DNA from: an uncultured Gammaproteobacteria bacterium
GTDB taxonomy: Bacteria > Patescibacteriota > Microgenomatia > UBA1406 > GWC2-37-13
Direction of reading: 5' to 3'
Assembly (NCBI GenBank): GCA_964445135.1
Contig: CAYUJW010000002.1
Coordinates: 1-56,795 of the forward strand
Length of the DNA stretch: 56,795 bases
Below the pieces are notes generated by a model, which did not search any database, had not been told where the DNA came from, and worked only from the letters and a program-made list of their open reading frames with translations. Shown here in pieces: positions 4,873 to 50,641 of the stretch; position 1 is the stretch's first letter, and every line of letters begins with the position of its first letter. The translations under genes were made by a program, and so were the position numbers.

Positions 4873-5622
4873 TTACTCGAGTGCCAAAAGAAGCCACATT
4901 ACCCAAATACCAGCTAGCATTGTTGCAAGTTGAATGAGGCTGCTTCGATGCTTGGTCTGCTTGTGGAGTTCAGGAATCATGTCTGCAGCGGCAATATAGA
5001 TAAAGTTTCCGGCTGCTGCCGCACTGAGGATGAGTGCCCAATTTTCGGCGCGTTCACTCAAAACTACAAACAAGGCAACTCCGAAAAATGCGGTAAGCGC
5101 GGAGAGAAGGTTGTACACCAAGGCGCGAGCTCGAGTGTATCCGCTGTGAATCAACACGCCAAAATTACCAATCTCTTGGGGAATCTCGTGCAGAATGACG
5201 GCCATGGTGGTCGCCAACCCAACGGGCACACTTATGGCAAATGAGGCGGCAATAATCATACCGTCGATCATGTTATGGAGACCATCTCCGGTGAGCGTCA
5301 TGATGCCAAGCGGGTTTGCATGTTGTTCGTCGCAATTATCTTGATGACTATGATGCGCATGGACCCATTTTTCAAGAATAAACGTCGCAACAATTCCTCC
5401 CAAAATCCAGATTGACACATCGGTCCCAAACCCAGCTTCCTCAACAACTTCTGGCAAGAGGTGTAAAAACACATCGCCCAACAAGGCACCAACTGAAAAG
5501 CTTACAAAATATCCAAGCACTCGTTGCATGCGACGACCCAAGGGTATCGTGAGTACACCAACCAAGGATATGAGGCTAACGGCCGCGACGCTCAGGAGCG
5601 TATAAATGAAACTCATTTGCAT
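4873..5622 (-). CDS. ZIP-family divalent metal (zinc) transporter
   Basis: HEIPQEIGNFGVLI signature, a His-rich loop (HAHHSHQDNCDEQH), and about 8 TM helices. Confidence 0.85.
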   Translation of the reverse strand: MQMSFIYTLLSVAAVSLISLVGVLTIPLGRRMQRVLGYFVSFSVGALLGDVFLHLLPEVVEEAGFGTDVSIWILGGIVATFILEKWVHAHHSHQDNCDEQHANPLGIMTLTGDGLHNMIDGMIIAASFAISVPVGLATTMAVILHEIPQEIGNFGVLIHSGYTRARALVYNLLSALTAFFGVALFVVLSERAENWALILSAAAAGNFIYIAAADMIPELHKQTKHRSSLIQLATMLAGIWVMWLLLALE

Positions 5623-9008: not shown

Positions 9009-10250
9009 ATGAGTGAACGTAATCCAGCTGGTCGATATGACCGCACAAAACAATTATTAACACGTACTGCAGCAGCTGGCGTAATGCTGTGGCCGACGCA
9101 AGCGGCAGCTGCAGAAGCGCAAACATCTTTCCCATACCAGACATCAGTGGTAGACGCAGCTGCGGCGCCATTTGGCGAACAATTGCCAACTGCCTCATTT
9201 GAGCCTCAGGCAGCGCCTGGATATTCAAGCGATCCGGTTGGTCATCTGGATTTTGTTACCCGATTCCCATCAGGTATTGATGGCGTGGCGGCGATTCGTA
9301 TTGCCGGTTGGACCGGCGATCAAGACGCGCCTCAAGGGCCAGGCGAAGTACATTTTTATGAAGGATCAAATTTTGCCGGATCAGCTATTGCCTCAGGCTC
9401 CCGCCCTGATGTGGCAGCTGCTGTGCCAGGTCTGGTCGGAAAAAGCGGCTTTGATGTGGCAATTACGAGTTCGGATCAGGGAGATCAGACGTTTTGCGCG
9501 TATGGCATAGGGACAGGCGGCGGCGCACCATATGTGGGAATTGGTTGCGAAACTGAACATACCGGTGATGCGCCATTTGGCACATTTACGGCGATACAAG
9601 ATGGCGCTCGCGTGTCGGTGTTTGGTGGTGAGATCGATCCGTCACACGCCGGCACTCCCCCAATTGTGGATATTACCGTAAACGGTCAATATGTAGGTGG
9701 AGCAGCCGTTGCCGCTCATGATGAGATGGCGGCGCAGTATCCTGCATATGGAGCGCGCCGTGGATATGAGGCGGTCATTCCGCTCGCGGATGATGCGAGT
9801 GAAGTGTGTGCTGTTGGGATTGGGGTGAATGCGGCTGGCCAATTAGTGCCTGGCGAGGCTGCGACTCTGGGATGCGCTCCCCTTCAGACCCGTCAGGAGC
9901 GCGAGTTTGCCACCCTTCCTGAGGAAACTCAGGTAGCACTTATGGCTCGCAAGTTCTTTCCCGATGTGTCAGGAGTTGAGCAAGTTACTCGATGTGAGTC
10001 GACCAACAACATGAACGCACAAGGTCCATCAGGGGGAAACTACGACTATTTTGGACCGATGCAAGTGGATATGGTGCTGCATGCTGCAAAGTTTGGCGGC
10101 CTTTCGGTTGGTGAGATCAAAGCCATCATGAGTGATGCCACTCACCCGCAATACAAGGGGGTCGTGGAGACATACTTTGCTGTGGCACGACAGATTTATG
10201 AGGGGAATCGTCGCGCTTGGCCAGAGTGTGGAAGGGGTGTATTTTACTAA
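9009..10250 (+). CDS. secreted cell-wall hydrolase: two tandem beta-rich modules plus a C-terminal Rpf-like (transglycosylase-like) domain
   Basis: N-terminal hydrophobic signal-like region. Two repeats of the pattern G..D...I.GW..D...VHFY/VDITV...RPDVAAA/..YPAYG...GF/YE...CA.GIG. The C-terminus RCESTNNMNAQGPSGGNYDYFGPMQVD...AWPECG parallels the Rpf signature CESGGNW..NTGNGxYGGLQF...WPxC. Confidence 0.7.
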   Translation: MSERNPAGRYDRTKQLLTRTAAAGVMLWPTQAAAAEAQTSFPYQTSVVDAAAAPFGEQLPTASFEPQAAPGYSSDPVGHLDFVTRFPSGIDGVAAIRIAGWTGDQDAPQGPGEVHFYEGSNFAGSAIASGSRPDVAAAVPGLVGKSGFDVAITSSDQGDQTFCAYGIGTGGGAPYVGIGCETEHTGDAPFGTFTAIQDGARVSVFGGEIDPSHAGTPPIVDITVNGQYVGGAAVAAHDEMAAQYPAYGARRGYEAVIPLADDASEVCAVGIGVNAAGQLVPGEAATLGCAPLQTRQEREFATLPEETQVALMARKFFPDVSGVEQVTRCESTNNMNAQGPSGGNYDYFGPMQVDMVLHAAKFGGLSVGEIKAIMSDATHPQYKGVVETYFAVARQIYEGNRRAWPECGRGVFY

Positions 10251-10304
10251 ATAATAACCTATAGTATTGACCAATGTGCCCGCCGTGCGCTATAATTGGG
10301 GCTT

Positions 10305-11459
10305 ATGTCAAAAGAACGGAGCCCACAGCATGAGCATGCGCCCCCACTCAGTCGCTTTGATCGCGTCGTAACAACGATTGCCGCGCGTACAGAGACGCTT
10401 CGTGACGCCGTACTATCACATATGGGGAGCGAGGAATCAGAACGTGGTGAGCGCGATATGCAGCCACTTATTGATGCACAAAAAAAATTGCGCGGCGTGA
10501 TGCTTGAGGCGCCATATACACGCGAACTCTATCTGGTTGACCCCACGCTTCGGGCGTTGGCCCGCGCAAACGACCCGCACCTTGCGCAGTTTTTGTCTCA
10601 CACCTATGCGATTGCTTCAGCGGCCGAACTTGTACAACATGGGGCATCCAAGCGCTTGGTGGATCAAGCGACCGCCGAGCATTCACACAAATGGAGGCAG
10701 ACACATGCGATCGATCAGGAGTGGCTCCAGCCCACGACACCAAGCACGGTAGTTGAGGTGATTGTGCGCCAACAAGCAGCAGGTCACGTCCACTTGCTCG
10801 GAGTTGGTGCCGCCTTATATGGCGCCCACCGTCAGCTGCTGCTGAGCGCAGAAGATGGAGTAGAAGGCGTGCCGATGTGGCGCTTGCCGGGCCAAAAACG
10901 GACAGGTTTGTTTGACCGCCCAACGCACGCGCAGACTGAAGCACAGATTGCCGCGCCCTCCCCCACACAATTGACTGATCTAACGTTGATCGTTGGGCCG
11001 CAACAACCACCTCCCCCACCAGGCGCCACAGATATCCCGATGCCCGGCCATATTGTAGTACCAGTGTGGCAAACGCGTGCGGCTGGCGATCGCATACATC
11101 CCTTGGCCCAGACGATTGTTGTTTCGGGGGAAAACACTGCGCAAATACTCAGATCTGAGCAGGCCGCCCATATGGACGTGCTGATTGTTGGTCATGACGG
11201 TCTGCGTAGTGCGCTTGCCGCGCAAGCTGCAGCATATAGCACCATTACATCCCCAACATTTAAGTCGCGTTATGGCGAATTGCCTATTGAGTCAGCGTTT
11301 CCCAAACTTACGCGTATCATGGATCATGTGGATGTACGTACTGCTCAAATCATGTACGCTGCGATGCGTGAAGAAGGAGCGGGGCTCGGGGTTGAGGTGT
11401 ATGATGTGCCTGGGTTGTGTGAGCTGCGTGCCAAAATAAGCACGTGCACTGCTTTCTAA
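10305..11459 (+). CDS. hypothetical cytoplasmic protein (PPPPPG tract)
   Basis: Long ORF. I moved the start from the track TTG (10296) to the ATG at 10305, which lies 8 nt after TATAAT (10291-10296). No motif recognised. Confidence 0.55.
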   Translation: MSKERSPQHEHAPPLSRFDRVVTTIAARTETLRDAVLSHMGSEESERGERDMQPLIDAQKKLRGVMLEAPYTRELYLVDPTLRALARANDPHLAQFLSHTYAIASAAELVQHGASKRLVDQATAEHSHKWRQTHAIDQEWLQPTTPSTVVEVIVRQQAAGHVHLLGVGAALYGAHRQLLLSAEDGVEGVPMWRLPGQKRTGLFDRPTHAQTEAQIAAPSPTQLTDLTLIVGPQQPPPPPGATDIPMPGHIVVPVWQTRAAGDRIHPLAQTIVVSGENTAQILRSEQAAHMDVLIVGHDGLRSALAAQAAAYSTITSPTFKSRYGELPIESAFPKLTRIMDHVDVRTAQIMYAAMREEGAGLGVEVYDVPGLCELRAKISTCTAF

Positions 11460-16702: not shown

Positions 16703-17356
16703 CTACGGGAGCTGCCAGAACCCAAGCTCTGCGACTCGTGCAGGGAGCTGAGGATTGATTTCATGCAGCTTCTCTCGGAAGCGTGGATCCGTGTTGAACG
16801 CGCCGATTGGCCCGCTCATGTCTGCGGTATACGCTCCGATGTCGATTTGGGTTTTTTTCTTTCCCCCTTTATTACTCCCACTCATGAGAATAAAAATGAG
16901 TGCTAGTACTGCGACTGCGGCGGCGAGCAAAAACATGGCGATAATTGCCAGCAATTTGATCACCTCCCAAATGGCGACGAAAAAGTTTTCATCGTGGCCA
17001 TCGTAGTCTTCAATGTTGCTTGCCCGCCATGAGCTGGTGTTGTAGAATTCTACAACACGAAAAACGATTCCATCGTTCTCAGACACGGCGAACATTTCGC
17101 GCGTGGGGAGCGCGAAGAACGCAAAAAACGTTCCATTGCGTTCGATCCTCGAGATTGTTGGTGCCCAGCGGACTCCAGAAGGAAGCGTTACCGCTTCGCC
17201 TTGGACCGCGTACCCCTTGAGGTACAAGCCAGGAATAGCCTCTCGCCAGTCTGAGGCATCGTTCGTCGAAGCTCCCAATTGACTTGGCAAAGCAGGTGCA
17301 ACGGCCGCTGCGGCTGCAACTCCCATCAAGGAGAGCAATCTTCTTCTACTCAGCAT
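16703..17356 (-). CDS. paralogue A of an uncharacterised signal-peptide/single-TM protein family
   Basis: SRRRLLSLMGVAAAAAV (Tat-like), conserved block VRWAPTISRIERNGTFFAFFALP, TM helix LLAIIAMFLLAAAVAVLALIFIL followed by KGGKKK, and a C-terminal tail ending FWQLP. About 50% identical by eye to 18319..19020 over the ectodomain. Confidence 0.75.
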   Translation of the reverse strand: MLSRRRLLSLMGVAAAAAVAPALPSQLGASTNDASDWREAIPGLYLKGYAVQGEAVTLPSGVRWAPTISRIERNGTFFAFFALPTREMFAVSENDGIVFRVVEFYNTSSWRASNIEDYDGHDENFFVAIWEVIKLLAIIAMFLLAAAVAVLALIFILMSGSNKGGKKKTQIDIGAYTADMSGPIGAFNTDPRFREKLHEINPQLPARVAELGFWQLP

Positions 17357-17394
17357 TCTTCCTTCTTTCGCTTCTTTACATTCTTACGATAGAA

Positions 17395-17413
17395 GTTGAC
17401 CGGAGAGGTCAAC
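17395..17413. promoter_or_regulatory. palindromic site GTTGACC-N5-GGTCAAC about 40 nt upstream of paralogue A (operator overlapping a -35-like TTGACC)
   Basis: Perfect 7-bp arms. On the minus strand TTGACC is followed by TAAGAAT and then the ATG at 17356. Confidence 0.5.
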
Positions 17414-17513
17414 AGGCACACCTCCAGACGGCTTTGCAAGCATTGCGTGCTCACTATCCGCGCCGGATGGTCATGATAATCCCATAGGGATCCTGTTTTA
17501 GTGCGTCAGCCTA

Positions 17514-18260
17514 TTAAAGCTGGACGTATGAGCCGGGCAGTCTGCCAGTCTCGAGCCAGTAGCCGGCGTTGGGGTCGGCCCTCATCTCGCGCCCGAATTC
17601 GGCGTTGTTGCTCGCAAGCCAGCTCATGTCGTGGTGAAACGATTCGTGACCACTCACTTCGTTGGGTCCGAACATCCACATGGCAAGGCCCACGTTGTGC
17701 CACTGGTCGAACTGACCGAGCTCGTTGAGCTTGTCCTTGTCCTTGGGTCGTGGACGGTCCTTCATGATCTGATCGAACTTGTAGTTGAACCAGAGCTTCA
17801 TGATGTAGATGATGACGATCAGCACGAGCGCGATGAGCAGAAGCACTGCAAGAAGCATCAGCGGGTCGTTCCACAAGAAAACGAGAACTTCGATGGCTTT
17901 TGCCACCAAATCAAGTGTGGACATGGTCCACCGGTGGTTTTCCCAGAGGTTTCCAGCGGGAGACCAGACCGAGCCGTCGGCTTCGCTGATTGCCACTTCG
18001 CGGCCGCCGAAGGTGAGGAGCGCATAATAGCGTCCGTCTGCGGGTTGGATGCGTCGCAACGTCGGCTGGTAAAACAATCCGTCGTGCTGGATGGTCGGTC
18101 CCGTGATCACGAGGCCTGCGTGGTAGAGAGCACCGTACATGAAGCGAGGAGTTTCCCCGACTTCAGTTGACGTCGCATGCGCAACGTTCGGAAGCGCGAC
18201 AGCAAGTGCTGCGCCTCCTATGAGACCAAAAAGGCCTCGTCGGCTCATTTGCTGATTCAT
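17514..18260 (-). CDS. paralogue B (divergent) of the same family
   Basis: Trimmed to MNQQMSRRGLFGLIGGAALAVA (twin-arginine-like). It has the same order of parts: block YQPTLRRIQPADGRYYALLTFGG, a TM helix, a basic stretch, and a C-terminal tail NAEFGREMRADPNAGYW. The track start at 18437 would overlap paralogue C. Confidence 0.7.
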   Translation of the reverse strand: MNQQMSRRGLFGLIGGAALAVALPNVAHATSTEVGETPRFMYGALYHAGLVITGPTIQHDGLFYQPTLRRIQPADGRYYALLTFGGREVAISEADGSVWSPAGNLWENHRWTMSTLDLVAKAIEVLVFLWNDPLMLLAVLLLIALVLIVIIYIMKLWFNYKFDQIMKDRPRPKDKDKLNELGQFDQWHNVGLAMWMFGPNEVSGHESFHHDMSWLASNNAEFGREMRADPNAGYWLETGRLPGSYVQL

Positions 18261-18318
18261 GTTTATCATTACCTTTCGTTGGCTAATTGTTTCTGGTTTC
18301 CCGCCAGAATTTTTCCGC

Positions 18319-19020
18319 CTAGGGCATGACCCAGATGCCTTGGTTGGCACCGAGTTCCGTGAGACCTGGATATTGCCGAAGCTCTGCTCGGAAATCGGGC
18401 TCGGCATTGAAGGTCTCCGTGAACCAGGTTGGGTCACGCTTCCACGCGCCGGCCTCGATCTGCGTCTGCTCCATGTTTCGTCGACCCTTGGGGGTCTTCG
18501 GAGCTTTCCAGATCCAGATGAGAATCAAGATCGAGAGCACCACGGCAAACAGCACCGCAAGTGCGATCACGATTTTTACCAGAAGAATGATGAGTTCCGC
18601 CAGCCAAATGCCGTTTTCCGTGGCGTCGGCCAGGGTGGCCGGGTGCCAGGTGGCAGAATTGTAGTAGTCGTTTACCACCCACAAGATGTCATCGTCCTCA
18701 GAGGCTGCCCAGAGGCGGCCGTTCGGAGTGGCGAAGAAAGCGAAATAGCTCCCTCCGCGCTCGATTCGGATGATCGTGGGCGTCCAACGGACTCCATTGG
18801 TGACCACACTGGTCCATTGAACCGGATACCCCGAAAGGTACACGGATGGAATGGCGGACTGCCAGTCGGTTGCAGAAGCAGTGCTCTGCGTGGAAAAAAC
18901 CGAAGACGCGCTGTCTGCGGTTTGGTTAGCAGCGGCGGGGCTGCCGTATGTGGCGACTGCGGGTGCAGTCACCAGCGTCACTGCGCAAAGCAGATGACGT
19001 GGCTTCAATCTTCTGAACAT
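18319..19020 (-). CDS. paralogue C of the same family
   Basis: Signal peptide, block VRWTPTIIRIERGGSYFAFFATP, TM helix, KAPKTPKGRR, and a tail NAEPDFRAELRQYPGL...IWVMP. A strong SD AAGGAGG (complement of 19031-19037) lies 10 nt before the ATG. Confidence 0.75.
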   Translation of the reverse strand: MFRRLKPRHLLCAVTLVTAPAVATYGSPAAANQTADSASSVFSTQSTASATDWQSAIPSVYLSGYPVQWTSVVTNGVRWTPTIIRIERGGSYFAFFATPNGRLWAASEDDDILWVVNDYYNSATWHPATLADATENGIWLAELIILLVKIVIALAVLFAVVLSILILIWIWKAPKTPKGRRNMEQTQIEAGAWKRDPTWFTETFNAEPDFRAELRQYPGLTELGANQGIWVMP

Positions 19021-19115
19021 GATATTGGTGCCTCCTTATGCACCTAGCACAAACTCCCGCTTTGGAGCTGTGCCTTTTTTGAGTCCTCATCCTTGAGGCA
19101 ATTGACCCATCCTTA

Positions 19116-19239
19116 GGTCACTCTGAAAACACACATAGTTTAATGTGGAAATGTGAGAATGTGGAAATATGAAAATGCGACGCAAAATGAATATTACAGT
19201 TACTTTTCGTAATTTTCACATTGTGCTTTCAGAGTGACC
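19116..19239. repeat. inverted repeat (13-bp perfect arms) enclosing an 8-nt microsatellite
   Basis: Arms ggtcactctgaaa (19116-19128) and tttcagagtgacc (19227-19239). Inside are ATGTGGAA ATGTGAGA ATGTGGAA ATATGAAA (19143-19174). Confidence 0.85.
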
Positions 19240-19551
19240 CAAAGTAGTAAATAAATACTATCGGATTAAATGCTTAAGGAATAATGTCCCAAAAGAAGAG
19301 ATAAAAGATATTAATAATTCCCTGATTGTAAATGTTCGTGTTGGGGCATATGAAGATCAATGCAAGCTTGATTTGATAGGCCAAAACACTCAATGCGTAC
19401 GCAGTGCTCGCACCCCCACTTAAGCCATGCAAACCGGCTCAGAGTGAATGCGCGTACAGCATAGGCATACAGCCGATATTATACCATTATTATAGGCTGT
19501 ATTCAAGGCAGCAGCCTTTGAAATAATATGGCTACGGTTATCATGAGCATC

Positions 19552-19719
19552 GTCATCCCCGACCCCGATTAGGGAATCCAGGACGCGTGAGTCGTGCATG
19601 TGGCGCAGGGGCACTGGATTCCCGCTTTCGCGGGAATGACAAAAGGAGGACGGGGAATGACAAAAAAGGGTGGCGGTTGTTGTACACACATCGTCATTCC
19701 CGACTCCGATCGGGAATCC
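19552..19719. repeat. cluster of REP-like palindromic units (GTCATTCCCG-loop-CGGGAATCC)
   Basis: Units at 19552-19579 (gtcatccccgaccccgattagggaatcc), 19616-19640 (ggattcccgctttcgcgggaatgac, opposite orientation) and 19693-19719 (gtcattcccgactccgatcgggaatcc). Confidence 0.85.
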
Positions 19720-19725
19720 AGAATG

Positions 19726-20004
19726 TTAAAGACTTGGATATAAATCAATCCAATTCGGATTATGTTCTTCTATCAACTTGAGTTTCCAAGTCCGATTCCA
19801 TTTCTTGAGCCGCTTCTCTCTTTGTATCGCAGACTCAATTGATTCGTGGGCTTCAAAGTACACGAGAAGATGAGTATGGTACTGTTTTGTAAACCCATCA
19901 TTTATATCGCTTTTGTGCTCATACACGCGGCGTTTAAGATTGTTTGTGACTCCAATATAGAGCGTGCCGTTTCTCTGGCTTGCGAGAATATACATTGCAT
20001 ACAT
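19726..20004 (-). CDS. GIY-YIG nuclease superfamily protein (UPF0213/YhbQ-like)
   Basis: MYILASQRNGTLYIGVTNNLKRRVYEHK...REKRLKKW matches GIY...YIG...R...E. The track N-terminus MSFPRKRESS is translated repeat DNA, so I trimmed to the Met at 20004. Confidence 0.8.
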   Translation of the reverse strand: MYAMYILASQRNGTLYIGVTNNLKRRVYEHKSDINDGFTKQYHTHLLVYFEAHESIESAIQREKRLKKWNRTWKLKLIEEHNPNWIDLYPSL

Positions 20005-20087
20005 GAAGCGTATGATACTGGATTCCCGCTTTCGCGGGAATGACAAAGGGGCTGCGGGAATGACAAATTACCTACGCTATCGTAATT

Positions 20088-20244
20088 CCCCGTTTGGCAG
20101 TACTTTTTCGACTTGGCCAATGCGCCCATGACAGGCGGCCACGCAGGAAAAATACGCCAAACAAAAATATGGCTTGGTGGGTCTGTAATTTTGCACATGG
20201 CAAGGGGGGCACTGGATTCCCGCTTTCGCGGGAATGACAAAGGG
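20088..20244. repeat. copy 1 of a ~155-bp dispersed element ending in the REP-like palindrome
   Basis: Aligns by eye at roughly 85-90% identity with 50416-50570 (shared cccgtttggc.gtactttttcgacttggc...aaaaatacgccaaacaaaaatatggcttgg...ggattcccgctttcgcgggaatgacaaa). A further lone palindrome lies at 20020-20044. Confidence 0.85.
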
Positions 20245-20298
20245 GCTGCGGGAATGATATAGGGGTGCGCGGGCAGGTCCCGACCTTAGCCCATTCCA

Positions 20299-21526: not shown

Positions 21527-21859
21527 ATGTCAATAGACAATAGTCACACATCATGTATTTTGGCGGCCACCCGCATCATCGGAGACAAGTGGAATCCACG
21601 CATTCTGTATGCCCTCTCAATTGGGGCAAATGGGTTTTGTGCCATTCAGCGTGAGCTTGACGGCGTCAATCCTCGCACCTTATCCAATCGCCTAAACGCC
21701 TTGGAGCGCGACCAAATTATCACCAAATCACACGACGAATCCCCCCATAAGACCAGCTACACTCTCACCGAGCAAGGCGCTGCACTGCTGCCAATTCTGA
21801 CACAGATGGCCAGCTGGAGCGCCACCTACCACCCAACAAACAACTCCTCTGGTGTGTGA
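21527..21859 (+). CDS. HxlR-family winged-helix transcriptional regulator
   Basis: CILAATRIIGDKWNPRILYAL...GFCAIQREL.GVNPRTLSNRLNALERDQII is the typical HxlR pattern. Confidence 0.8.
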   Translation: MSIDNSHTSCILAATRIIGDKWNPRILYALSIGANGFCAIQRELDGVNPRTLSNRLNALERDQIITKSHDESPHKTSYTLTEQGAALLPILTQMASWSATYHPTNNSSGV

Positions 21860-30797: not shown

Positions 30798-31237
30798 CTT
30801 TTACTGATCTCTCCTCTACCCTCAATTGGGTTGGCAATTAAGTGTATAGGTGAGAGGAGGATGGAAGATGAAGAGAAAGATGTGTGCGAAGGCGAATGCC
30901 TGGGCGGTAGAAGGGCGGTGAGGCGCTTCAAACATCAATCAAATCAGAGCTTCCAGCCTAGTGGGATCCTCAAGCGAGAACGTGCTTTTCCTCATGCTAA
31001 AGCGAGGTGCGCAAGTTATTTCGCGAGGTATAATCCCGGCGGATCTTTTTTCGATAGCTCAAAAAGCAGCGTGCAGCGAATAAATCGCGCTTCTGTTTTG
31101 ATGAGAATCTACTAAAAGAAACTCCTCCATGAGGGTTAGGACCTCTATCACAGACCAATTACTGTATCTTCAACCTTGATGGTCAAAGAAACAAATCCCT
31201 TCGGGAGATTCCAGTGTTTGGTCGTTGGACCACACGA

Positions 31238-31426
31238 TCATCGTTTGAAGATGACCGGGTTGCTCGCTGATCGCATTGCTGCATTCAGCGCGGTCCAGGT
31301 CTTGGCTCGTCGTGCGGCCACTTGCGCAGGTGTCCCGTGAGGGCGTACCTGGCTCGTGATGTGTGCTCGTTGAGCACTTCGCAACGTCGAAGCCTTGGTG
31401 CTATCGGTTGTTGGCCAATAGTACAT
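31238..31426 (-). CDS. small basic hypothetical protein (62 aa) on the high-GC island
   Basis: Trimmed to MYYWPTT. AAGGAGGT (complement of 31437-31444) lies 10 nt upstream of the ATG. High GC. No homology recognised. Confidence 0.35.
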   Translation of the reverse strand: MYYWPTTDSTKASTLRSAQRAHITSQVRPHGTPAQVAARRAKTWTALNAAMRSASNPVIFKR

Positions 31427-31623
31427 GGTGGTTTTCACCTCCTTCCATTTCTCTGGAAAAAAGACATTTTTTATAGACCTACCGCAGATCCGCCTTCCAA
31501 TACAAGTCATGTGACCCGTATAAATAGGGAGACCTACAGTCAGGCAGTGTGATTCGCATGTGTTGCGATTCACGTGACGCGGTGGGTGTTGATGGTTTAC
31601 TATCCCATGCAACTACAATCCAT

Positions 31624-31748: not shown

Positions 31749-32594
31749 TCAGTTGACCCTAACGGTGGTGGGGCGTCGCGATGCGAGCGCTCCGTGAATG
31801 GCCAGCACGATGCCAACAACAATTGCCACGAAGACCCAGGGAAGGATCGTCGCAACAGTGGTGTTCAGTCCCGTGAAGGGGAGCTGACACGAGCCGGTCT
31901 CGGCATTCCAGTAGGGGCTGGTGGGCCCACAGGTGGAAACCGTGATGGTCGGCGGGTTGGTGCTCGGCGTCGTCGGAGCCGGCGGCTGCGTGGTCGTGGT
32001 GACCGTGGTGCTGCTGCCTTCGGGCGTGGTCGTCGGCGTCGTCGTGCTCGGCGGTGCGGTCGTGGTCACAGGGACCTTGACTGCTCCACAGAATGCTTCA
32101 ACGGAGCGGTGACCCAGGTCGCGGGGCAGCTCAGGGATGTTGTAGTGGCGGTCACGGTAGTCCGTGGTCGTCGCTCGGTTGCCCTTTGCAGTGCACAGCT
32201 TGGGATCGATGGTGTACGGTTCTTCCGAGCCGTTCATCTGGTCATCCCAGTGCATCATGGCGGTGCGGCCCGCGGGGATCTCGACGCTGGCATTGTAGAG
32301 CCCATTGGTTTGGAACCAAGGAATCAGCTCGGTGCCGTCATCGAGGATGACCGCGAAGTACCCGTCGTACCGTCCGTCTTCAACCAGGTTTCCCAGGATG
32401 TCGACTTGACTTCCCACAAATGCGTGGACTTCAACCTCAACGGTCGTCGTCTTCAGCTCCTGCGGAACGGGGGTCGGGGTGGCGGTCACCGTGGTGGCCG
32501 TCGGGGTGGAGCCGGTGTCGGCGGATGCCGATCCGGCAGATGCTGCGACTCCGAAGAGCGCTGCAGCGATGATGATCATTCCTTTTCTGAACAT
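31749..32594 (-). CDS. LPXTG-type cell-wall-anchored surface protein
   Basis: Signal peptide MFRKGMIIIAAALFGVAASAGSASA, a globular domain, and a Thr/Pro-rich stalk. The C-terminus is LPFTG plus the hydrophobic helix TILPWVFVAIVVGIVLAI plus RRP, a classical sortase sorting signal. A hand count of nt 31981-32040 gives 44/60 G+C. Confidence 0.8.
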   Translation of the reverse strand: MFRKGMIIIAAALFGVAASAGSASADTGSTPTATTVTATPTPVPQELKTTTVEVEVHAFVGSQVDILGNLVEDGRYDGYFAVILDDGTELIPWFQTNGLYNASVEIPAGRTAMMHWDDQMNGSEEPYTIDPKLCTAKGNRATTTDYRDRHYNIPELPRDLGHRSVEAFCGAVKVPVTTTAPPSTTTPTTTPEGSSTTVTTTTQPPAPTTPSTNPPTITVSTCGPTSPYWNAETGSCQLPFTGLNTTVATILPWVFVAIVVGIVLAIHGALASRRPTTVRVN

Positions 32595-33311
32595 GGTGTT
32601 TACTTCCTTCTTGTTAGTAGATGGTGGTATTACGCTTGCTCAGTTTGCCTTGCCTCTTTTTTAAACTCCAAGGTGGAGCCTTTGCCGAGGTTCGACAAGA
32701 TGCGGGTATGACTTTTTTCTTCACCTCCATATGTCCTTTCGCCGCGTTCCTGTGGCCGTACTACATCAACCTCCATGTCGATGCTTTGTATGCGTATCCC
32801 TTTGCATTTTCAGAAAAGAAGTCTCATATTAGTGAGGCTCAATCTTACTCGTGGCCGGGAAGGCACATACGGGACCTAGTAAATAGGGGCCCATTTTTGG
32901 TATGTCTTTTTCCATGGTACGCATCTGCGGCTTTTGGGCAGCAGCATACAACTCAATGAGCGATATCCAAATGAATGAATATCTGAGGCCTTTTTACGGG
33001 TCTCCTCTTTGGGTGTGTGGAATCATGGACACTGTTATACGGATGTCAGGAATCGGTTACGGCAACGGTTATGACCTGCCCGCAGATGCTGCGCATCAAG
33101 CGCTGCAGGCGGGAGCTCGTTTCGGTTTGGTGTGTCGGTTACGGTATAGTGCCTGATGCACGATACCCTTCAACCTTACCCATACCAGCTTCGATACCCT
33201 ATCCGTTACCCTTACCTGGCAATCATATAGCAGTGCCCAATCATCATGTGCACTTGAAAAGAGTGAATATAGTTTAGTCCTAACCCAATTGTTAAGCACC
33301 AACCAAGTTCA

Positions 33312-33343
33312 GTGTGAAAGTGTGAAAATGTGAAAATCACATA
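33312..33343. repeat. 8-nt microsatellite GTGTGAAA GTGTGAAA ATGTGAAA ATCACATA
   Basis: Read directly from the sequence. It is the same word family as the 19143-19174 repeat. Confidence 0.8.
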
Positions 33344-34136
33344 ATCTGCACTGACAACATTTGTATATTTCTATGCAAAAAGAAATAGGTGTTTACTGAA
33401 ATGTGCTGGTATTTTTTGGGATAGTCTATGGCTTAATGAATCTTCAAGCAAGTAGAAGAATCGCAGGCCTATGACTATCGCAATTACTTGGGGGTATTAT
33501 TTTTGGTAATTCCCAAGGAGTGGTGTTTAAAAAATGCTTGTGTTTTAAACAGTGCTCTTTGAGGACTACGGTGGGGTGTCCATGGCGCTATCGTTTTTGA
33601 ACAAGCGAGGCAATCCCCTATTTCTGGTGGTGAGACACCAAATGAAGTGGCCGACACATAAAACGTGAGTTGGATGTGTGGCGTGTGTGAGTCATGATTT
33701 GTTGTAAATGTTCCCCCGTGGTTGGCAGCTACATTGGTGCTATCTGGCAACTCCCCCTGTTGTCATCGCTTCCTTTTGCTGTCTGTATTGAGTACAAGTA
33801 CCCAATACAACATCTATATAGTATCATATTTCACGTCATTAGTCAACCCATAGAAGCATATATGCTATACTAGCTGATTCGTGTATTAAGTAAGCTACAA
33901 AAGGCTATAACGATAAATATGTATGAGAGCTATATAGATATATATGCTTCTTATAGAATACAAATATAGATAACCTATAGTATATAGATTGATGAGGATT
34001 GTGCTCACTCAAACCAGATATATCTATCTCATGCTGAGCTTTCCCATACTATGGGGTAGTATAGGCAGAGTGTTTGGGAGCTGTGTCAAGCACTAAGTAT
34101 CTCGCACTTGGCTTAAAAACCGCTGATGCTCCCGCC

Positions 34137-37631: not shown

Positions 37632-39032
37632 ATGAACGAGCGAGAAAGAGTCCAGATTGCACAAACACCAGAGGCTGAACACGCTTCCCCATCACTTCTG
37701 TGGGCGCAACAAGACTACCTGTCAGAACTTCTCGCAGCACGCTATCGCAATCCTGACGTCGCCAATTTTGACGAACTTGTACAGCTTAGTGCGCTTCCGC
37801 CTGATCACGCAAGCAAGATGAAAAAGCAGACAAAAGATGCGTTGGGAAAGGACATGGATACGGGCATTATTGATGAGTTTGAAGGGCAACTTCATGAATC
37901 CGGAGCGCCCATGGGGATTGATCCAAAAGATGTTGACTATGATCAATCGTGGCGCACATGCCGCATGCTTGCTAGAAAATTGCGCATGCGCCAGGACTCG
38001 TCTCAGAAAGGGCGCGACCTCAGCCAACTTGACTCATATGGTCACATGAAGTACACGCTTGGAGAACACCACTTACTTGAGCCGGGCGAAGAACATGCGC
38101 TATCTGCCATCATTTGGAGCGCACGATCTCAGTTGTCACTTGCCCGCCCTGATTTGGGGCAGATATTGCGAAGTGGAAGGTATGAAGAGAAGTCAGTTGA
38201 CGCAATTGCAAAGGATTTGGCAGATGAGCCTCACCTGCGACAACTTTTTCAACACTATCGCGAGGCGCTCGATACCCTCACGCTTTATAATCAACGATTG
38301 GCGCTTGGATATCTTGCCACTCGCTCCACATCGGGCGTACGAAGTGAAGAGGTGATGGTTGGGGCACAGCTTGGGTTGCGCCGAGCAGCCGAGCTATATG
38401 ATGCATCGACTGGGCTCAAGTTTTCGACGTTTGCAACTCCATGGTTGCGACAATCTGTAGACCGGGAAGTGGCGCGCGCCGATCTCATACAACTTCCGGC
38501 GCGAGTGCGGGAGCAACGAAGCGTCTTAAACGGGGTAATTGCTGAGATTACTTCGACAATTGGACGCGTGCCAACAGCCGAGGAGATTGCTTTACACATT
38601 GAACAGCTGAAAAAAAATATGGACCGCAATGATTCTGCGCCAAAGCGTTATGACGGCTTAACAGCTGAGGCAATTGCCCGCTTACTGCATGGACCGCGAG
38701 TCGCTGCATCGCTTGATAAGGTGGCTGATGAGGACGATCCAGACTCACGAACATTGTATGAAACAGCGCGCGTGGGCATAACGGATGATGTGGCAATGAT
38801 TGAGGCAGAGCTTGCCCTACGAAGCATGGCGGATAAGGCTGGCTTTACCTCTGAGGAACGAATGGTTTTTAGCGCAATTATGAAGAGCGGTGCATCGCTT
38901 GGCCAAGCTGGGCTTATCCATCTCTTGGAAGAGGAACAAGATTTAAAGCCAAACAGAGCGCGAACGCTTGTGCGCCGCGTTCGGGAAAAGCTTCGCAATT
39001 TAGAAGAGTATGCCGATCTGGTAAATGAGTAA
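37632..39032 (+). CDS. sigma-70 family RNA polymerase sigma factor with full regions 1.2-4 (primary-like)
   Basis: Region 2: GAQLGLRRAAELYDASTGLKFSTFATPWLRQSVDREV. Then LIQLPARVREQ (region 2.4/3.0), GRVPTAEEIA (region 3), and SEERMVFSAIM...RARTLVRRVREKLRN (region 4). Confidence 0.85.
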   Translation: MNERERVQIAQTPEAEHASPSLLWAQQDYLSELLAARYRNPDVANFDELVQLSALPPDHASKMKKQTKDALGKDMDTGIIDEFEGQLHESGAPMGIDPKDVDYDQSWRTCRMLARKLRMRQDSSQKGRDLSQLDSYGHMKYTLGEHHLLEPGEEHALSAIIWSARSQLSLARPDLGQILRSGRYEEKSVDAIAKDLADEPHLRQLFQHYREALDTLTLYNQRLALGYLATRSTSGVRSEEVMVGAQLGLRRAAELYDASTGLKFSTFATPWLRQSVDREVARADLIQLPARVREQRSVLNGVIAEITSTIGRVPTAEEIALHIEQLKKNMDRNDSAPKRYDGLTAEAIARLLHGPRVAASLDKVADEDDPDSRTLYETARVGITDDVAMIEAELALRSMADKAGFTSEERMVFSAIMKSGASLGQAGLIHLLEEEQDLKPNRARTLVRRVREKLRNLEEYADLVNE

Positions 39033-39089: not shown

Positions 39090-40361
39090 ATGAAAAAGGA
39101 AGGATACTCTTCGCTGCCTGAAATCAGTAAGCTACGCATTGAGCGCAATCACAAATCACCGTTTGAACACCTTGTTCCACAAGCAGGTGTCCCTTGGAGT
39201 ACTGCTGACTTTTTGATTGAATCTTCGCGCGCCGTCTTGCACCATGGTCCTCTCTCTCTTGATGAAGCGGTACACCTCTGCCCCCTTCCCAAACAGCATG
39301 CTGAAAAAGTAATGCGAGGCATTGGTGAGCTGAATCCAGAGCATAACGGTAAAAAAAGTGCCGCAGCACAGGTGTGGGATGAGTTGTCCAGGGACGCCGT
39401 CTTTGCCCAATGGATGCATCCCGCCTTACACGTTGTTGACCCCGCAGACTATGAAAAATACGCGCAGCATGCACAATCGCTTTATCTGCGATTTACCAAC
39501 CAAGCTGACAATTCCTCACCAATTGCGGCGCTTGGCAAAGGCAATGAATCGGAAAACATGCGTCGAGCGCGCAATCATGAGCTGATTGATGCGAGCGATA
39601 CCTATGCGTTATCGGCCGTGGTGTGGGGTGCACGAAGTGAAGTATCCAAGCATTGTCCGGTGGCTGGCCATGCAATGAGGGCTGGAAAAAGAGCGGAGTT
39701 TGCAAGTGCACCAGATGACAAACAGCCATATTTACAGGCATTACATGAGCAATATACCTGTGCCATTGATGTGCTTGTTGGATCAAGCCAACGGTTGGCA
39801 CGTGATATGGTATTGGGAATGCGTGCACGGCGCAATTATAGTCATGAAGACATGTTTGCAGATGCGCAGTTTGGCCTGCGGCGAGCCGCTGAGCTTTACG
39901 ATGCTTCAATGGGCTATGAATTTTCAACGTTTGCAACCAAGTGGATCCGCCAGGCGGTGGGCCGTGGGTATGAGCGTACAACGAAAGCAGATAAACAGCC
40001 GGTGCGACTCGATGCGCTTGCTCATACGCCAGAAGGTGAAGAGCTTTTAGCAATCGCTGAGCCCAGTTATGTGGAAATTGAGGATATAGGTGCCTCTGGC
40101 GCAATTGCCTCAATGCTCGCCTATTCCCACACGACGCCCTTGATGCGTGAAGGCTCCATTGCAATTATTCGTGATGTTTTGAGTGCAATTCAAGCCGAGC
40201 CAGATGGTACGCACATGCAAGAAATATACGAGCAGCTGGCCGGCAAATATGAGAAAAAGCCAACGGCCATTGCCGCCCTTGCACAGCGTTTCTTCAAGTC
40301 GGTTCGCGAAAATTCAAATCCGAGTGCGGTCCGTCACGAGATACGCATTGCCACCTCATAA
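39090..40361 (+). CDS. sigma-70-like paralogue with a conserved region 2 and degenerate or absent regions 3-4
   Basis: DAQFGLRRAAELYDASMGYEFSTFATKWIRQAVGRG is nearly identical in pattern to the upstream gene, and the N-terminal region is also paralogous (YALSAVVWGARSE vs HALSAIIWSARSQ). No IRxP.H block follows region 2. Confidence 0.7.
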   Translation: MKKEGYSSLPEISKLRIERNHKSPFEHLVPQAGVPWSTADFLIESSRAVLHHGPLSLDEAVHLCPLPKQHAEKVMRGIGELNPEHNGKKSAAAQVWDELSRDAVFAQWMHPALHVVDPADYEKYAQHAQSLYLRFTNQADNSSPIAALGKGNESENMRRARNHELIDASDTYALSAVVWGARSEVSKHCPVAGHAMRAGKRAEFASAPDDKQPYLQALHEQYTCAIDVLVGSSQRLARDMVLGMRARRNYSHEDMFADAQFGLRRAAELYDASMGYEFSTFATKWIRQAVGRGYERTTKADKQPVRLDALAHTPEGEELLAIAEPSYVEIEDIGASGAIASMLAYSHTTPLMREGSIAIIRDVLSAIQAEPDGTHMQEIYEQLAGKYEKKPTAIAALAQRFFKSVRENSNPSAVRHEIRIATS

Positions 40362-42971: not shown

Positions 42972-43649
42972 ATGTTTCCCCTATCCGATGTAAATATCCG
43001 GCGCACATTTCCGCTGGTAAACTATCTGATTATCATCGCAAACATTGTGGTGTTTTTGCTTGAGCTTGGAGCATATAACACGGACACATTTATCAATACG
43101 TATGCATTTGTCCCTTCTCGTTTTGTGTGGACTGATCCGTCATCGTATGCGCCAATATTGTATGCGATGTTTATGCATGGAAGCCTGATGCATATACTGG
43201 GAAATATGTGGTTTCTGCATGTGTTTGGCGATAATATCGAAGACACATTTGGACATATCAAATACCTACTGTTTTATATAGCTGGCGGGGTCATTGCCGC
43301 ATTTGCCCAGTATGTACTGATGCCCACAACTAGCATTCCCCTTCTTGGTGCATCAGGTGCCGTAGCGGCAGTGGCCGGAGCATATTTTGTATTATTTCGC
43401 AACTCACAGATCAAAACGCTTGTTGCACTCATTGTTATCTGGACTATTGTACGAGTTCCCGCATGGATCATACTCGGCTATTGGTTTCTTATCCAGCTAG
43501 TGTCTGGCTTTGGGTCGCTTGGGCAAGTGGGCAATGCAGATGTAGGTGGGGTTGCTTTTTGGGCACACATTGGAGGATTTGTCTTTGGGTGTGTAGTTGC
43601 GCTCTTGATCAGCAAAACAACTCACTATAATAACAATTATGACGCGTGA
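42972..43649 (+). CDS. rhomboid-family intramembrane serine protease
   Basis: HGSLMHILGNMWFL (HxxxN), GASGAVAAVAGAY (GxSG), AHIGGFVFG (catalytic His). Confidence 0.85.
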   Translation: MFPLSDVNIRRTFPLVNYLIIIANIVVFLLELGAYNTDTFINTYAFVPSRFVWTDPSSYAPILYAMFMHGSLMHILGNMWFLHVFGDNIEDTFGHIKYLLFYIAGGVIAAFAQYVLMPTTSIPLLGASGAVAAVAGAYFVLFRNSQIKTLVALIVIWTIVRVPAWIILGYWFLIQLVSGFGSLGQVGNADVGGVAFWAHIGGFVFGCVVALLISKTTHYNNNYDA

Positions 43650-45622
43650 GTTGAGGCGAAGGTGGTGATGAGCTGGCGTGCGTGATCCTCTTGAAATTGA
43701 TTGTATTGCGATTTGTACTTTTTCGCAAGCTCTGCAAGCTCCGCTTTATTTTTGGCAATAAGTCCCTGATGGTACTTTTCTTCATCCATAATAATGCGCT
43801 TTAGGTCAGAACTTGCGCCAAGCAATGTCTCCATATGTCGCAAGAACTCAAACACTTCGGCGCTGGTGACAATACGTGCGGTCAGAAGTCCAATTCGATT
43901 GGCGACCATATCGTCCTCTGACTTATTGATGAAAGATTTCAGTATTGGCCAATCCTGTGCGACGCGTTGGAGCTGAAAAATACCTTGTCGGAATGATCGT
44001 CTGGATCTCACCTTTCCATTGAGGATATATCCGTTCGTCCCTTCAAATACGTTGGGGTATTCCAACGCATCCTGTTGCATATCCAGCTCGGCGTCAAAAT
44101 TAAAATACGTATCTTGGGATATTCGATTTAATTTGTGAAGCGTGGTGAGTGAGTGTCGCTCGATGTTTATCAGCTCAATCTGCAAGCTTCGTTTGAATAG
44201 GTCAAGATCTTTGATTGATGCAAGTTTTTGATAGAGCGCTCGTTGCTCATTTGACTTTTCGGCGGTGATTGCTCCAATTATTTTCTGGTCAAAGTTTTTA
44301 AATGATTTGTTGTTAAGCGCCTCTTTCTCCGTTTCCAGACGATAAATTTGCTGATTCAATGTCTGTAGTTGATCAAGCGAATCGGGAATGTGAAGCTTGA
44401 GTGCAAGCAAGATGGGGCGAATTGTTGTTCCATTTATAAGCAATGTAAACAAAAAGGCTGACATGGTAAATACCAACATAAGGTCGCGATAGGCATACGT
44501 TTCAGGGATCGAGTACACAAGTACCAATGGAATGACGCCACGCAAACCTCCCCAGTTCAAGATGTGTTGCCACTTCATGGGAATGTTTGGCTCGTCTGCA
44601 AAAAAGCTCATTTTGTTTGAGATAAATGCGCTCAGATAGACGGACACCGCGCGACCCAAGAGTACCGCTACAATGGCGGCAGCCGCTTCTGGGAGTCGGT
44701 TATTAAAGATGCTCAGATCAAGGTTGTAGGTTGCGAAGAAGAATACCAACGAGACGGCGAGGAAGGCAAAGTATTCCCATGCTTCATGGATAAATTCGTG
44801 AACGTCATGTGAGATTTTTGTCTGACCAAGATTGCCCATAACGATTGCGGCAATGACAGTCGATATGACGCCGGAGAGGCCAAACAGCAGCTCGGACAAA
44901 ACAAACGATCCGATAGCTAAAACGACGGTCAGGGTCATTTCAATGAGTCGGTCGCTTTTGACGCGCTCGATGATATTTGAGAAGATGTACCCGACAAATG
45001 CTCCAAACACCATGCTTCCTATGAATATGTATAGAAAGTTTTGAATTGAAGAAAATACCGTTGGCGTATCACCCCCTGTGGCTCCAATAACAAATATCGC
45101 AATGATTCGATATGCAATAACACCCGTTGCATCATTTAACATACTCTCACCATCTGCGAGTAATCCGAGTCGCTTTGGAGCACCAAGCGATTTAAAGAGG
45201 GTGATTACCGCAATAGGATCGGTTGATGAGATGATTGCACCAAACAAAAGCGCCTCTCCCCAGCCTAGACCTAATGCATAGACCAAGACTGCCGCCACGG
45301 TCCCCACCGAAACCATGAGGCCGAATGTAGCCATAAAGGTGATCGTCTTAAACTGAAGCTTAAACTGGTGAATATTGATATGCATTCCCGATTCAAACAG
45401 CAAGAGTGGGAGCAGAAGATGGTAGATGACGCTGTGGGAAATCTCAAAGTGAAGTCCAAGCTCAAATGTATGATCGACCCATTGGAGAAAAAATCCAGCG
45501 ACCAACAGTGCTACGGTATAGGGCAATACTGAGTATTTTTTTGATGCAACCTGCAATACAGATGAAAACAACAGGAAGACGAGTGTGACAAGAAGCGTTA
45601 GTACGACAGTATCAGCATGCAT
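43637..45622 (-). CDS. CPA1-family Na+/H+ (cation/proton) antiporter with a long C-terminal cytoplasmic domain
   Basis: About 12 TM helices and the SSTDPIAVITLF signature (ATDPVAV-like). Trimmed to MHADTVV (ATG at 45622) because the track N-terminus reads through tRNA-Leu. Confidence 0.85.
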   Translation of the reverse strand: MHADTVVLTLLVTLVFLLFSSVLQVASKKYSVLPYTVALLVAGFFLQWVDHTFELGLHFEISHSVIYHLLLPLLLFESGMHINIHQFKLQFKTITFMATFGLMVSVGTVAAVLVYALGLGWGEALLFGAIISSTDPIAVITLFKSLGAPKRLGLLADGESMLNDATGVIAYRIIAIFVIGATGGDTPTVFSSIQNFLYIFIGSMVFGAFVGYIFSNIIERVKSDRLIEMTLTVVLAIGSFVLSELLFGLSGVISTVIAAIVMGNLGQTKISHDVHEFIHEAWEYFAFLAVSLVFFFATYNLDLSIFNNRLPEAAAAIVAVLLGRAVSVYLSAFISNKMSFFADEPNIPMKWQHILNWGGLRGVIPLVLVYSIPETYAYRDLMLVFTMSAFLFTLLINGTTIRPILLALKLHIPDSLDQLQTLNQQIYRLETEKEALNNKSFKNFDQKIIGAITAEKSNEQRALYQKLASIKDLDLFKRSLQIELINIERHSLTTLHKLNRISQDTYFNFDAELDMQQDALEYPNVFEGTNGYILNGKVRSRRSFRQGIFQLQRVAQDWPILKSFINKSEDDMVANRIGLLTARIVTSAEVFEFLRHMETLLGASSDLKRIIMDEEKYHQGLIAKNKAELAELAKKYKSQYNQFQEDHARQLITTFASTHAS

Positions 45623-45778
45623 TGGTTGGTATGTTGGTTCCCTCTTTTCATGCAGTCTATCACCGCATAAATAAATGGGGAAAAGATTATTGTAATCCTC
45701 AGGTTGTAAATATTCAATACCAGCACTTTGCCGTATGTCCGGAGAGAGACGTCTTACTGTGAAGCGTAAAAATATGTG

Positions 45779-45862
45779 TGCCGATGAAGGGACTTGAACC
45801 CCCACACTCTTGCGAGTACTAGTTCCTAAAACTAGCGCGTCTGCCAGTTCCGCCACATCGGC
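45779..45862 (-). tRNA. tRNA-Leu (anticodon TAG), long variable arm, CCA not encoded
   Basis: Hand fold of the reverse complement: acceptor GCCGATG/CATCGGC, anticodon stem CTAGT/ACTAG with loop TTTAGGA, variable arm TACTCGCAAGAGTGT, T loop TTCAAGT. Confidence 0.9.
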
Positions 45863-50415: not shown

Positions 50416-50570
50416 CCCGTTTGGCGGTACTTTTTCGACTTGGCGAATACACCCATACATGGTCGCCACAGAGAAAAATACGCCAAACAAAAATATGGCT
50501 TGGCGGACTGTGATTTTGCACGTGGCGAGGGAGGCGCTGGATTCCCGCTTTCGCGGGAATGACAAAAAAG
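50416..50570. repeat. copy 2 of the ~155-bp dispersed element
   Basis: See copy 1. The palindrome core is at 50539-50563. It lies between the EamA and GT2 genes. Confidence 0.85.
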
Positions 50571-50641
50571 GGTGGCGGGAATGGCAAATTCCTTACCATT
50601 TACCACTTTACTATTTACCGCTTACGATTGGCAAGAATTCT

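Follow-up and report, generated by a model that had tools for sequence, protein, structure and literature searches.

Expression cassettes for abundant envelope proteins are exemplified by the long, structured 5' untranslated regions (UTRs) of S-layer genes and of ompA, and by cry3A of Bacillus thuringiensis, whose STAB-SD stabiliser resembles a Shine-Dalgarno (SD) sequence. Membrane proteins that are exported by the twin-arginine translocation (Tat) pathway and anchored by their C-terminal tail are reportedly represented by Escherichia coli HybO, HyaA and FdnH, a type said to have been described by Hatzixanthis, Palmer and Sargent in 2003. Here we examine an array of three tandem genes, termed A, B and C, on the minus strand of a 56,795-nucleotide stretch of DNA from an uncultured bacterium (contig CAYUJW010000002.1; the whole stretch is hereafter called the window). 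The products of these genes make up a previously undescribed and unannotated protein family, whose members are exported, span the membrane once and occur only in a single uncultured bacterial lineage. The array itself is probably a vertically inherited, lineage-restricted operon of highly expressed type I envelope proteins that form A/C-B complexes, and not a foreign island.

The three tandem open reading frames (ORFs) listed in a preliminary description of this DNA are confirmed, and BLASTP detects homology among their products beyond chance, with 38% identity over 193 amino acids for A and C (E 2e-36) and further matches between B and C (E 5e-7) and between A and B (E 7e-5). Mutual identities among the three paralogues are just 24-39%, and profile matches of the family to its relatives have E values of 1e-60 to 1e-93. 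The shared architecture proposed earlier, comprising a signal peptide with paired arginines (RR), an ectodomain, one transmembrane (TM) helix, a Lys/Arg cluster and a tail, holds in all three proteins. More precisely, each has a mildly hydrophobic N-terminal RR segment (Kyte-Doolittle values of 1.6-2.6 for the signal h-regions), a beta-rich ectodomain of ~100 amino acids, a single TM helix (Kyte-Doolittle 3.1-3.5), three to five Lys or Arg residues within the next 15 positions, and a tail of 61-95 amino acids. In A, the signal peptide is followed by a Ser/Thr-rich linker, the ectodomain (approximately residues 50-130), the TM helix (approximately residues 150-168), the Lys/Arg cluster and a 65-residue tail with the C-terminus GIWVMP; its orthologues P0001 and P0005 are 85% and 56% identical to it. 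The tail of C ends in GFWQLP, and C has almost the same signal peptide as the relative L018_1 (L001, L004 and L015-L020 are labels for the loci of relatives; L004 is CAZOFT010000010.1).

Two of the motifs given in the preliminary description apply less widely than it supposed: A and C match its ectodomain motif exactly but B does so only in part, and the W..P ending of the tails holds for A and C, whereas B continues for six more residues. The 95-residue B tail contains the conserved blocks DQWHN...F.HDMSWLA...YWLETG, and its conserved His/Trp/Asp blocks are DQWHN, GH, F..DM.WLA and WL.TG. Near-invariant positions of the ectodomain are Y61, G64, G76, R85, A105, E108 and W125, and the family alignment reveals no conserved Cys or His in this domain. 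The Tat-type pattern [STN]RR.[FLIV][FLIVA] is matched by 10 of 26 family members, including B and C, and Pfam TAT_signal matches 1 of 20 members (E 0.11). No tat genes are found in the window.

Structure prediction with AlphaFold2 (AF2) was poor with five sequences (predicted local distance difference test score, pLDDT, of 49), and a run with a 20-sequence alignment, which yields a mean pLDDT of 72, was used instead. In this model the ectodomain (approximately residues 60-130; pLDDT in Table 1) consists of one helix and then six short strands, the membrane is crossed by an unbroken helix (residues 130-172), and the tail is made of three short helices (pLDDT ~80-86). By the positive-inside rule, the single helix and the Lys/Arg cluster predict a type I orientation with the N-terminus outside and the C-terminus inside. 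The earlier suggestion of a surface or signalling module is reasonable, since these are exported, membrane-anchored tandem paralogues.

The earlier statement that no known domain can be recognised also holds. Searches of Pfam, NCBIfam, PADLOC and PHROGs with A, B, C and their neighbours yield nothing at or above a curated threshold, and the best Foldseek matches have E values of 0.57 against PDB and 0.19 against BFVD (criterion E <= 0.001). Sequence profiles from PDB return only signal-peptide noise (a weak MelC1 Tat signal) plus one artefact, a match to the Kelch/SAKe designer propeller. The E value of this match, 6e-10, results from adding up six identical 5.5-bit matches that each have an independent E value of ~150, and the candidate was rejected. 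As a general observation, designed proteins with perfectly identical repeats, such as SAKe, yield E values near 1e-9 from six 5.5-bit copies, which can be mistaken for homology. Pfam Reg_prop matches 2 of 20 members at E 0.06-0.12, short of its cut-off; Foldseek finds no propeller fold, and hhalign finds no internal repeat between the N-terminal and C-terminal halves of the ectodomain. The resemblance of the ectodomain to a propeller blade is therefore only a lead. A reading of the family as anti-sigma factors was dropped because the topology is reversed and the ZAS motif is missing. The ectodomain is predicted with confidence, yet no known fold matches it.

Relatives of these proteins occur on a narrow set of contigs, beyond which no homologues were found, even among 1.84 billion representatives. 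An exhaustive HMMER profile search of those representatives yields 19 clusters, 16 of them with E <= 1e-10, and a word-indexed search of 5.8 billion proteins yields five. A pattern scan of 185,579 GTDB species genomes finds one locus (L004) and a scan of Joint Genome Institute (JGI) metagenomes finds one contig (L017). Viral contigs contain no family match, and neither a search with B alone nor an ectodomain-only profile adds further relatives. Ten more contigs from the same organism as the window are at least 99.85% identical to it.

All loci with more than a few kilobases of context (the window, L001, L004 and L016) lie on similar mid-GC contigs, and the contigs of the remaining loci are too short for their context to be judged. 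A block composed of HxlR, nitroreductase, EVE, the array, one or more small ORFs and a giant protein is common to the window, L001 and L004. The order in L001 is HxlR, nitroreductase, EVE, an A-type gene, a B-type gene, two small ORFs and the giant protein. In L004 it is DegT, HxlR, nitroreductase, EVE, five A-type genes, one B-type gene, a small ORF and a 1744-amino-acid orthologue of the giant protein, so that family copy numbers in the three genomes are 2, 3 and 6. Identities between the window and L001 or L004, respectively, are 88% and 83% for EVE, 75% and 70% for nitroreductase and 66% and 68% for HxlR; DegT is 63% identical in L004 (L001 was not compared). For the family proteins the corresponding values are 56% and 40% (A) and 44% and 32% (B), so that A diverges faster than neighbours that retain 63-88%. 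The giant protein is 33-40% identical in L001 (three segments) and 35% in L004. In L016 the neighbours differ and the protein is barely recognisable (E 1e-4), and promoter, leader and gene are still found together.

A neighbour-joining tree separates an A/C clade from a B clade. Window A falls among the A-types of other genomes and window B among their B-types; window C is basal to the A-types, where it branches separately from the other C-type genes (L018_1, L020_1 and L015), and the C-types form no monophyletic clade. The expansion of A-type genes is specific to the L004 lineage. As read from this tree, A, B and C represent three old subfamilies common to other genomes. The duplications would therefore be old, and the recent local amplification proposed in the preliminary description finds no support. 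Every locus with enough sequence (the window, L001, L004, L017, L018 and L019) has at least one A/C-type gene and at least one B-type gene, with B-type orthologues identified in all five of the relatives. A- and B-type paralogues within the same genomes also have in common an N-terminal linker motif, TN/SVETDSSAS..PQS.

The DNA of the array had been described as compositionally foreign. The G+C counts on which this was based are reproduced for positions 17521-17580 (41 of 60) and for the line at 12001 (34 of 60), whereas lines of the 24-26 kb region contain 19-32 rather than 18-25. Plain G+C in the array is 0.52-0.58 compared with a window mean of 0.48, which is not unique because the 9-12.5 kb and 31.5-32.5 kb regions are equally high. 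The array does stand out in G+C at third codon positions (GC3; Table 1), since the other genes range from 0.26 to 0.60, with the exception of an LPFTG gene at 31749-32594. The family genes of L001 (0.69-0.73) and L004 (0.71-0.83) likewise exceed their neighbours (0.38-0.59), and the G+C excess in L004 is larger even though its background is lower.

The increase is selective among codons. The ratio C/(C+T) at two-fold sites is 0.72 in A, 0.86 in B and 0.59 in C, as opposed to 0.36 +/- 0.085 in other genes (z 2.8-5.9), whereas GC3 at four-fold sites deviates by just z 0.9-2.4. Comparing family with background usage in the window, TTC rises to 68% from 17%, TAC to 71% from 31%, AAC to 77% from 38% and ATC to 74% from 30%, and GAC, AAG and CAG are likewise sharply increased. 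Nearly unchanged are GCA (33% in the family, 42% in the background), GGA (30% and 31%), CGA (29% and 28%) and GAA (56% and 58%), and AGA is even increased, both in the window (16% compared with 10%) and in L004 (18% compared with 11%). The shift is more extreme in L004, with TTC at 93% versus 14% and TAC at 97% versus 31%. Spacers between the paralogues are not GC-rich (0.41-0.54). A gene from an actinobacterium with 65-70% G+C would carry almost no AGA, GCA or GGA, and a high-GC donor would not give a codon-selective shift that keeps these three codons and leaves the spacers ordinary. Furthermore, an imported signature should decay over the divergence seen here, yet the genome with the lowest background shows it most strongly, which argues for codon adaptation. 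Most likely, the high G+C of the array reflects codon tuning for strong expression, as judged from these codon patterns. When a few genes are strongly adapted in their codons, a local G+C 'island' can arise without any foreign DNA, and a comparison of two-fold with four-fold sites, together with rare codons such as AGA, separates the two cases.

Signals upstream of the genes are also distinctive. As stated in the preliminary description, most genes in the window appear to be leaderless: an SD-like core is present in just 5 of 39, and in many genes a TATAAT-like box lies 6-12 nucleotides before the start, often as part of CCTATAGTATAAT. Examples of such leaderless-type starts are those of 4873-5622 and those at 21527, 21943, 34808, 37632, 39090, 54451 and 55608. 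Transcription thus seems to be predominantly leaderless in the window, and L001, L004 and L016 look alike in this respect. The array appears to be among the few leadered, SD-dependent operons in its lineage. Its promoter 20-mer, CCTATAATAATGGTATAATA, is unique in the window, and L001, L004 and L016 each have a single copy of the promoter motif, CCTATANNAATGGTATAATA, ahead of their first family gene, with the copy in L016 being identical. This promoter fits the CCTATA..TATAAT style of the lineage.

The promoter and a leader of ~300-450 nucleotides are kept in four diverged genomes (window 19021-19506, minus strand; L001 9519-10000; L004 7278-7712; L016 9690-10000). A conserved block, AATCAGGGAA, lies at approximately 19319-19332, and the last ~115 nucleotides of the leader are ~90% identical between the window and L001, compared with 74% for the coding sequence. 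RNAalifold analysis of the four genomes yields a helix of ~24 pairs for hairpin P1, ~10 of them with changes on both sides; for example, GGTCACT/AGTGACC is replaced by GGTCGCT/AGCGACC or GGTTACT/AGTAACC. Its folding energies lie well under those of shuffled controls (Table 1). In the SD hairpin, direct reading of the L004 stem (GACGC/GCGTC) shows that two positions differ and pairing is kept, while the RNAalifold alignment of this hairpin counts one compensatory and one one-sided change. L015 and L019 have a compact version of the leader element, GACC-UNCG-GGUC. The Rfam bacterial families do not match the leader even at E <= 10, and searches with leader motifs find it to be unique at each locus. 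The leader may stabilise the mRNA or act as a regulatory RNA, and together with the promoter it is a concrete cis-regulatory element open to testing.

The strong AAGGAGG sequence that had been assigned to C sits instead upstream of A (Table 1), and the SD of C is GAAGGAAG. Of the family genes listed, window B alone lacks a recognisable SD and shows only GAAAGG; each of the others has one. Judged by these signals, expression of the array looks like that of a dedicated high-output or regulated cassette.

Table 1. Positions of the array genes, their upstream elements and relevant neighbouring genes in the window.
Feature	Length	Position	Strand	Remarks
Paralogue A	233 aa	18319-19020	minus	A-type; AF2 ectodomain pLDDT 83-92; GC3 0.69
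Paralogue B	248 aa	17514-18260	minus	B-type subfamily; Tat-consensus signal SRRGLF; GC3 0.71
Paralogue C	217 aa	16703-17356	minus	C-type branch of A/C clade; signal SRRRLL; GC3 0.57
Promoter of array		about 19477-19506	minus	sigma-70-type; TTGAAT, 17 nt, TG-n-TATAAT; 10/12 consensus matches plus TG
5' leader	~450 nt	19021-19476	minus	length inferred from promoter position; four-genome alignment
Hairpin P1		19111-19244	minus	GGGTCACTCT ... AGAGTGACC; minimum free energy z -7.6 in window, -7.7 in L004
Invariant box TAAGGATGGGTCA		19103-19115	minus	after P1
SD hairpin GGTGC-ATAAGGAG-GCACC		19027-19044	minus	loop shows AAGGAGG (19031-19037), 10 nt before ATG of A
Small ORF	96 aa	15772-16062	minus	weak lipoprotein-like signal (STSC); in syntenic block
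Giant secreted protein	1414 aa	11481-15725	minus	ordinary codon usage, GC3 0.50; conserved downstream neighbour
LPFTG surface protein	281 aa	31749-32594	minus	Thr/Pro-rich; TM helix and basic tail; sortase-type signal; GC3 0.76

We propose that the family proteins would be exported through the N-terminal RR signal peptide, in a Tat-like manner for B and C and in a Sec-like or ambiguous manner for A, and would then be held in the cytoplasmic membrane by the one TM helix near the C-terminus. This would place an aromatic-rich beta domain of ~100 amino acids outside the membrane and a conserved tail of 60-95 amino acids inside. The operon would be built for high output by means of its near-consensus promoter, long stable leader, SD sequences and strong codon adaptation. 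Because A/C-type and B-type genes co-occur at every locus with sufficient sequence, we further propose that A/C-B hetero-oligomers form, which is the weakest step of the scheme. The fast-evolving ectodomains might contact the cell wall, a glycan or a partner cell, and the conserved tails, especially the His/Trp-rich tail of B, might dock a cytoplasmic partner. Exposed surface proteins that are abundant typically combine rapid divergence with a strong codon bias, and the family is a promising candidate for a major component of the cell surface.

Several points weigh against this proposal. The case for hetero-oligomers derives entirely from co-occurrence, and that for codon adaptation from the pattern of the codon shift. 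Highly expressed genes usually evolve slowly, and the fast evolution of the family genes, as is seen for surface antigens, is in tension with high expression. A lacks the Tat consensus and carries only FRRLKP. With its ordinary codon usage, the giant protein probably does not pair stoichiometrically with A, B and C. Finally, the 450-nucleotide leader could be a separate RNA or a palindrome that acts at the DNA level. A bolder version of the proposal, to which we give only a small chance, is that an abundant envelope complex with blade-like beta ectodomains assembles as a hetero-oligomer under the control of an undescribed leader RNA, in which P1 competes with a GACC-loop-GGUC hairpin. If this were true, the complex could serve as a main surface determinant, in attachment or in the recognition of phages and hosts, for an uncultured, largely leaderless, monoderm-like lineage.

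Other histories of the array were considered alongside vertical inheritance with codon adaptation. The preliminary description saw a high-GC actinobacterium as the possible source of the genes, which on this view arrived horizontally as an island and multiplied on site afterwards. Although local G+C (0.53-0.58) above the window mean, Ala-rich Tat-like signal peptides and the lack of homology to other parts of the window would fit a recent event of this kind, we regard it as very improbable. That description had itself named related genomes with the same G+C and synteny as evidence against a foreign origin, and such homologues were found in L001 and L004: the same locus, synteny and G+C excess recur in relatives down to 40% protein identity, with the larger excess in L004 despite its lower background. 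Moreover, the codon shift is selective, keeping AGA, GCA and GGA and leaving the spacers without high G+C; no integrase, tRNA or direct repeats border the 16.7-19.0 kb region; and the three subfamilies are old, with no homologue outside the lineage among the 1.84 billion representatives. An older acquisition, in which an ancestor of the lineage obtained the operon with its promoter and leader from a donor and has since passed it on vertically with codon optimisation, is unlikely as well, yet it has the best claim among these alternatives. It would account for the joint presence of promoter, leader and gene even in L016, where the neighbours are others, and for a leadered, SD-dependent operon in otherwise leaderless genomes. 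However, no donor homologues were found and the promoter is in the lineage's own style, and for everything observable today this history overlaps largely with the explanation that we prefer.

High GC3 might also arise independently of expression, through GC-biased gene conversion or through a recombination hot spot at an array under diversifying selection. Tandem paralogues with rapid protein divergence are a plausible setting for this process, four-fold GC3 is also somewhat increased, and the linker motif common to A- and B-types of the same genomes hints at exchange. Nevertheless, the bias is much stronger at two-fold codons ending in a pyrimidine than at four-fold sites, AGA rises, the spacers keep their ordinary G+C, and the low identity among the paralogues (24-39%) leaves no recent conversion visible. 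The unrelated, single-copy LPXTG-type gene at 31749-32594 has the same codon signature as well. We consider gene conversion improbable, slightly more so than an ancestral acquisition. The genomic setting could alternatively be taken to indicate a polymorphic-toxin-like system, in which the small membrane proteins serve as immunity or accessory proteins and the giant protein is the toxin. A variable-copy array of small membrane proteins does lie beside a secreted protein of 1414-1744 amino acids, and both evolve fast. Against this, neither a toxin domain nor an Rhs, LXG or CDI domain was detected, and PADLOC gave no matches; the array sits upstream, 640 nucleotides from the next gene, and has a promoter of its own as well as a terminator-like site; the C-terminal 740 amino acids of the giant protein are conserved; and the array departs strongly from the giant protein in its codon usage. 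This reading is given hardly any credence. The vertically inherited operon of abundant envelope proteins remains the explanation that we favour.

Among the neighbours, the giant protein is 35% identical over 794 amino acids to the 1744-amino-acid protein of L004. LysM is detected in it only below threshold, its C-terminus is Ala-rich and hydrophobic, and the conserved 740-residue C-terminal portion is not polymorphic. The small ORFs of L001 and L004 are positional counterparts of the 96-amino-acid ORF of the window, and no sequence similarity to it was detected; this ORF is an unproven candidate member of the system of the array. On the plus strand, 9009-11459 encodes proteins of 413 and 387 amino acids with no family match, which make up a lineage-specific secreted block together with the giant protein and the 96-amino-acid ORF. 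This block has high G+C at first codon positions (0.65-0.68) and ordinary GC3.

The LPFTG gene is present in a single copy and is unrelated to the family, yet it shares its codon signature. It is preceded by ~900 nucleotides of non-coding DNA (32595-33500) that are 83% identical to L001 (3560-5332), with blocks above 95%, and this stretch is better conserved than most coding sequence; it has no Rfam match and no convincing ORF. Downstream of the same gene, 30809-31579 is 79% identical to L001 5678-6441 and contains just a doubtful ORF of 124 amino acids.

Between EVE and the family promoter (19.6-20.3 kb), a small GIY-YIG gene (19726-20046) is flanked by copies of a palindromic repeat, CTGGATTCCCGCTTTCGCGGGAATGACAAA, which is found at 19608-19664, 20017-20067, 20206-20257 and 50416-50596. 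The block is absent at that position in L001 and L004, and it looks like a separate insertion. The repeat weakly resembles dRS3-like elements of assorted Proteobacteria. Elsewhere in the window, tandem sigma-70-like proteins encoded on the plus strand at 37632-39032 (466 amino acids) and 39090-40361 (423 amino acids) have long N-terminal extensions, with only region 2 detected, and are syntenic with a 638-amino-acid homologue in L001 (1-2208). A tRNA-Leu(TAG) gene at 45778-45862 (minus strand) overlaps the 5' end of the ORF for a 739-amino-acid Na+/H+ exchanger (43637-45856), and therefore the true start of the exchanger must be further downstream. L016 carries a gene for a PF18895 pilin of the type IV secretion system (T4SS) type found in the candidate phyla radiation (CPR). 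The LPFTG signal, the leaderless genes and this pilin fit a monoderm-like or candidate-phylum lineage better than the title 'uncultured Gammaproteobacteria' given to L004, and this title may be wrong.

The family is new, but the array is not established as a novel type of system, and its parts can be compared with those of described ones. Like the cassettes of S-layer genes, ompA and cry3A, it combines a strong promoter, a long leader with stable hairpins, a true SD and codon bias, and like cry3A with its STAB-SD it has an SD-like box (UAAGGA), here ~85 nucleotides upstream of the start and with a putative stabilising or regulatory role. It differs from these cassettes in that its sequence is unrelated to theirs, P1 lies away from the inferred 5' end, and the SD-like box is partly paired in P1. 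The arrangement of a gene for a small type I membrane protein next to one for a secreted protein of more than 1400 amino acids recalls SlaA and SlaB of Sulfolobus, in which a giant surface protein is paired with a small stalk protein anchored by a TM helix. In contrast to that system, the giant neighbour of the array shows unremarkable codon usage and has a separate promoter region, and no similarity of sequence or fold is found.

At the protein level, sortase LPXTG substrates likewise have a signal peptide, an extracellular domain, a hydrophobic helix and a Lys/Arg cluster in that order. The family proteins, however, carry no LPXTG before the helix and have 55-100 conserved residues after the basic cluster, which argues for a permanent membrane anchor rather than a sorting signal. 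With proteins of the HybO, HyaA and FdnH type they share a single TM helix near the C-terminus, a folded domain predicted to lie outside and, in B and C, a twin-arginine-type N-terminal signal. They differ from this type in that A lacks the consensus and that the tail is long (55-100 amino acids) and conserved instead of a short stub; moreover, an ectodomain lacking conserved Cys or His would offer no site for a redox cofactor, unlike that of HybO, HyaA and FdnH. By analogy, tail-anchored envelope proteins of the Tat or Sec route would be the closest functional counterparts of this family.

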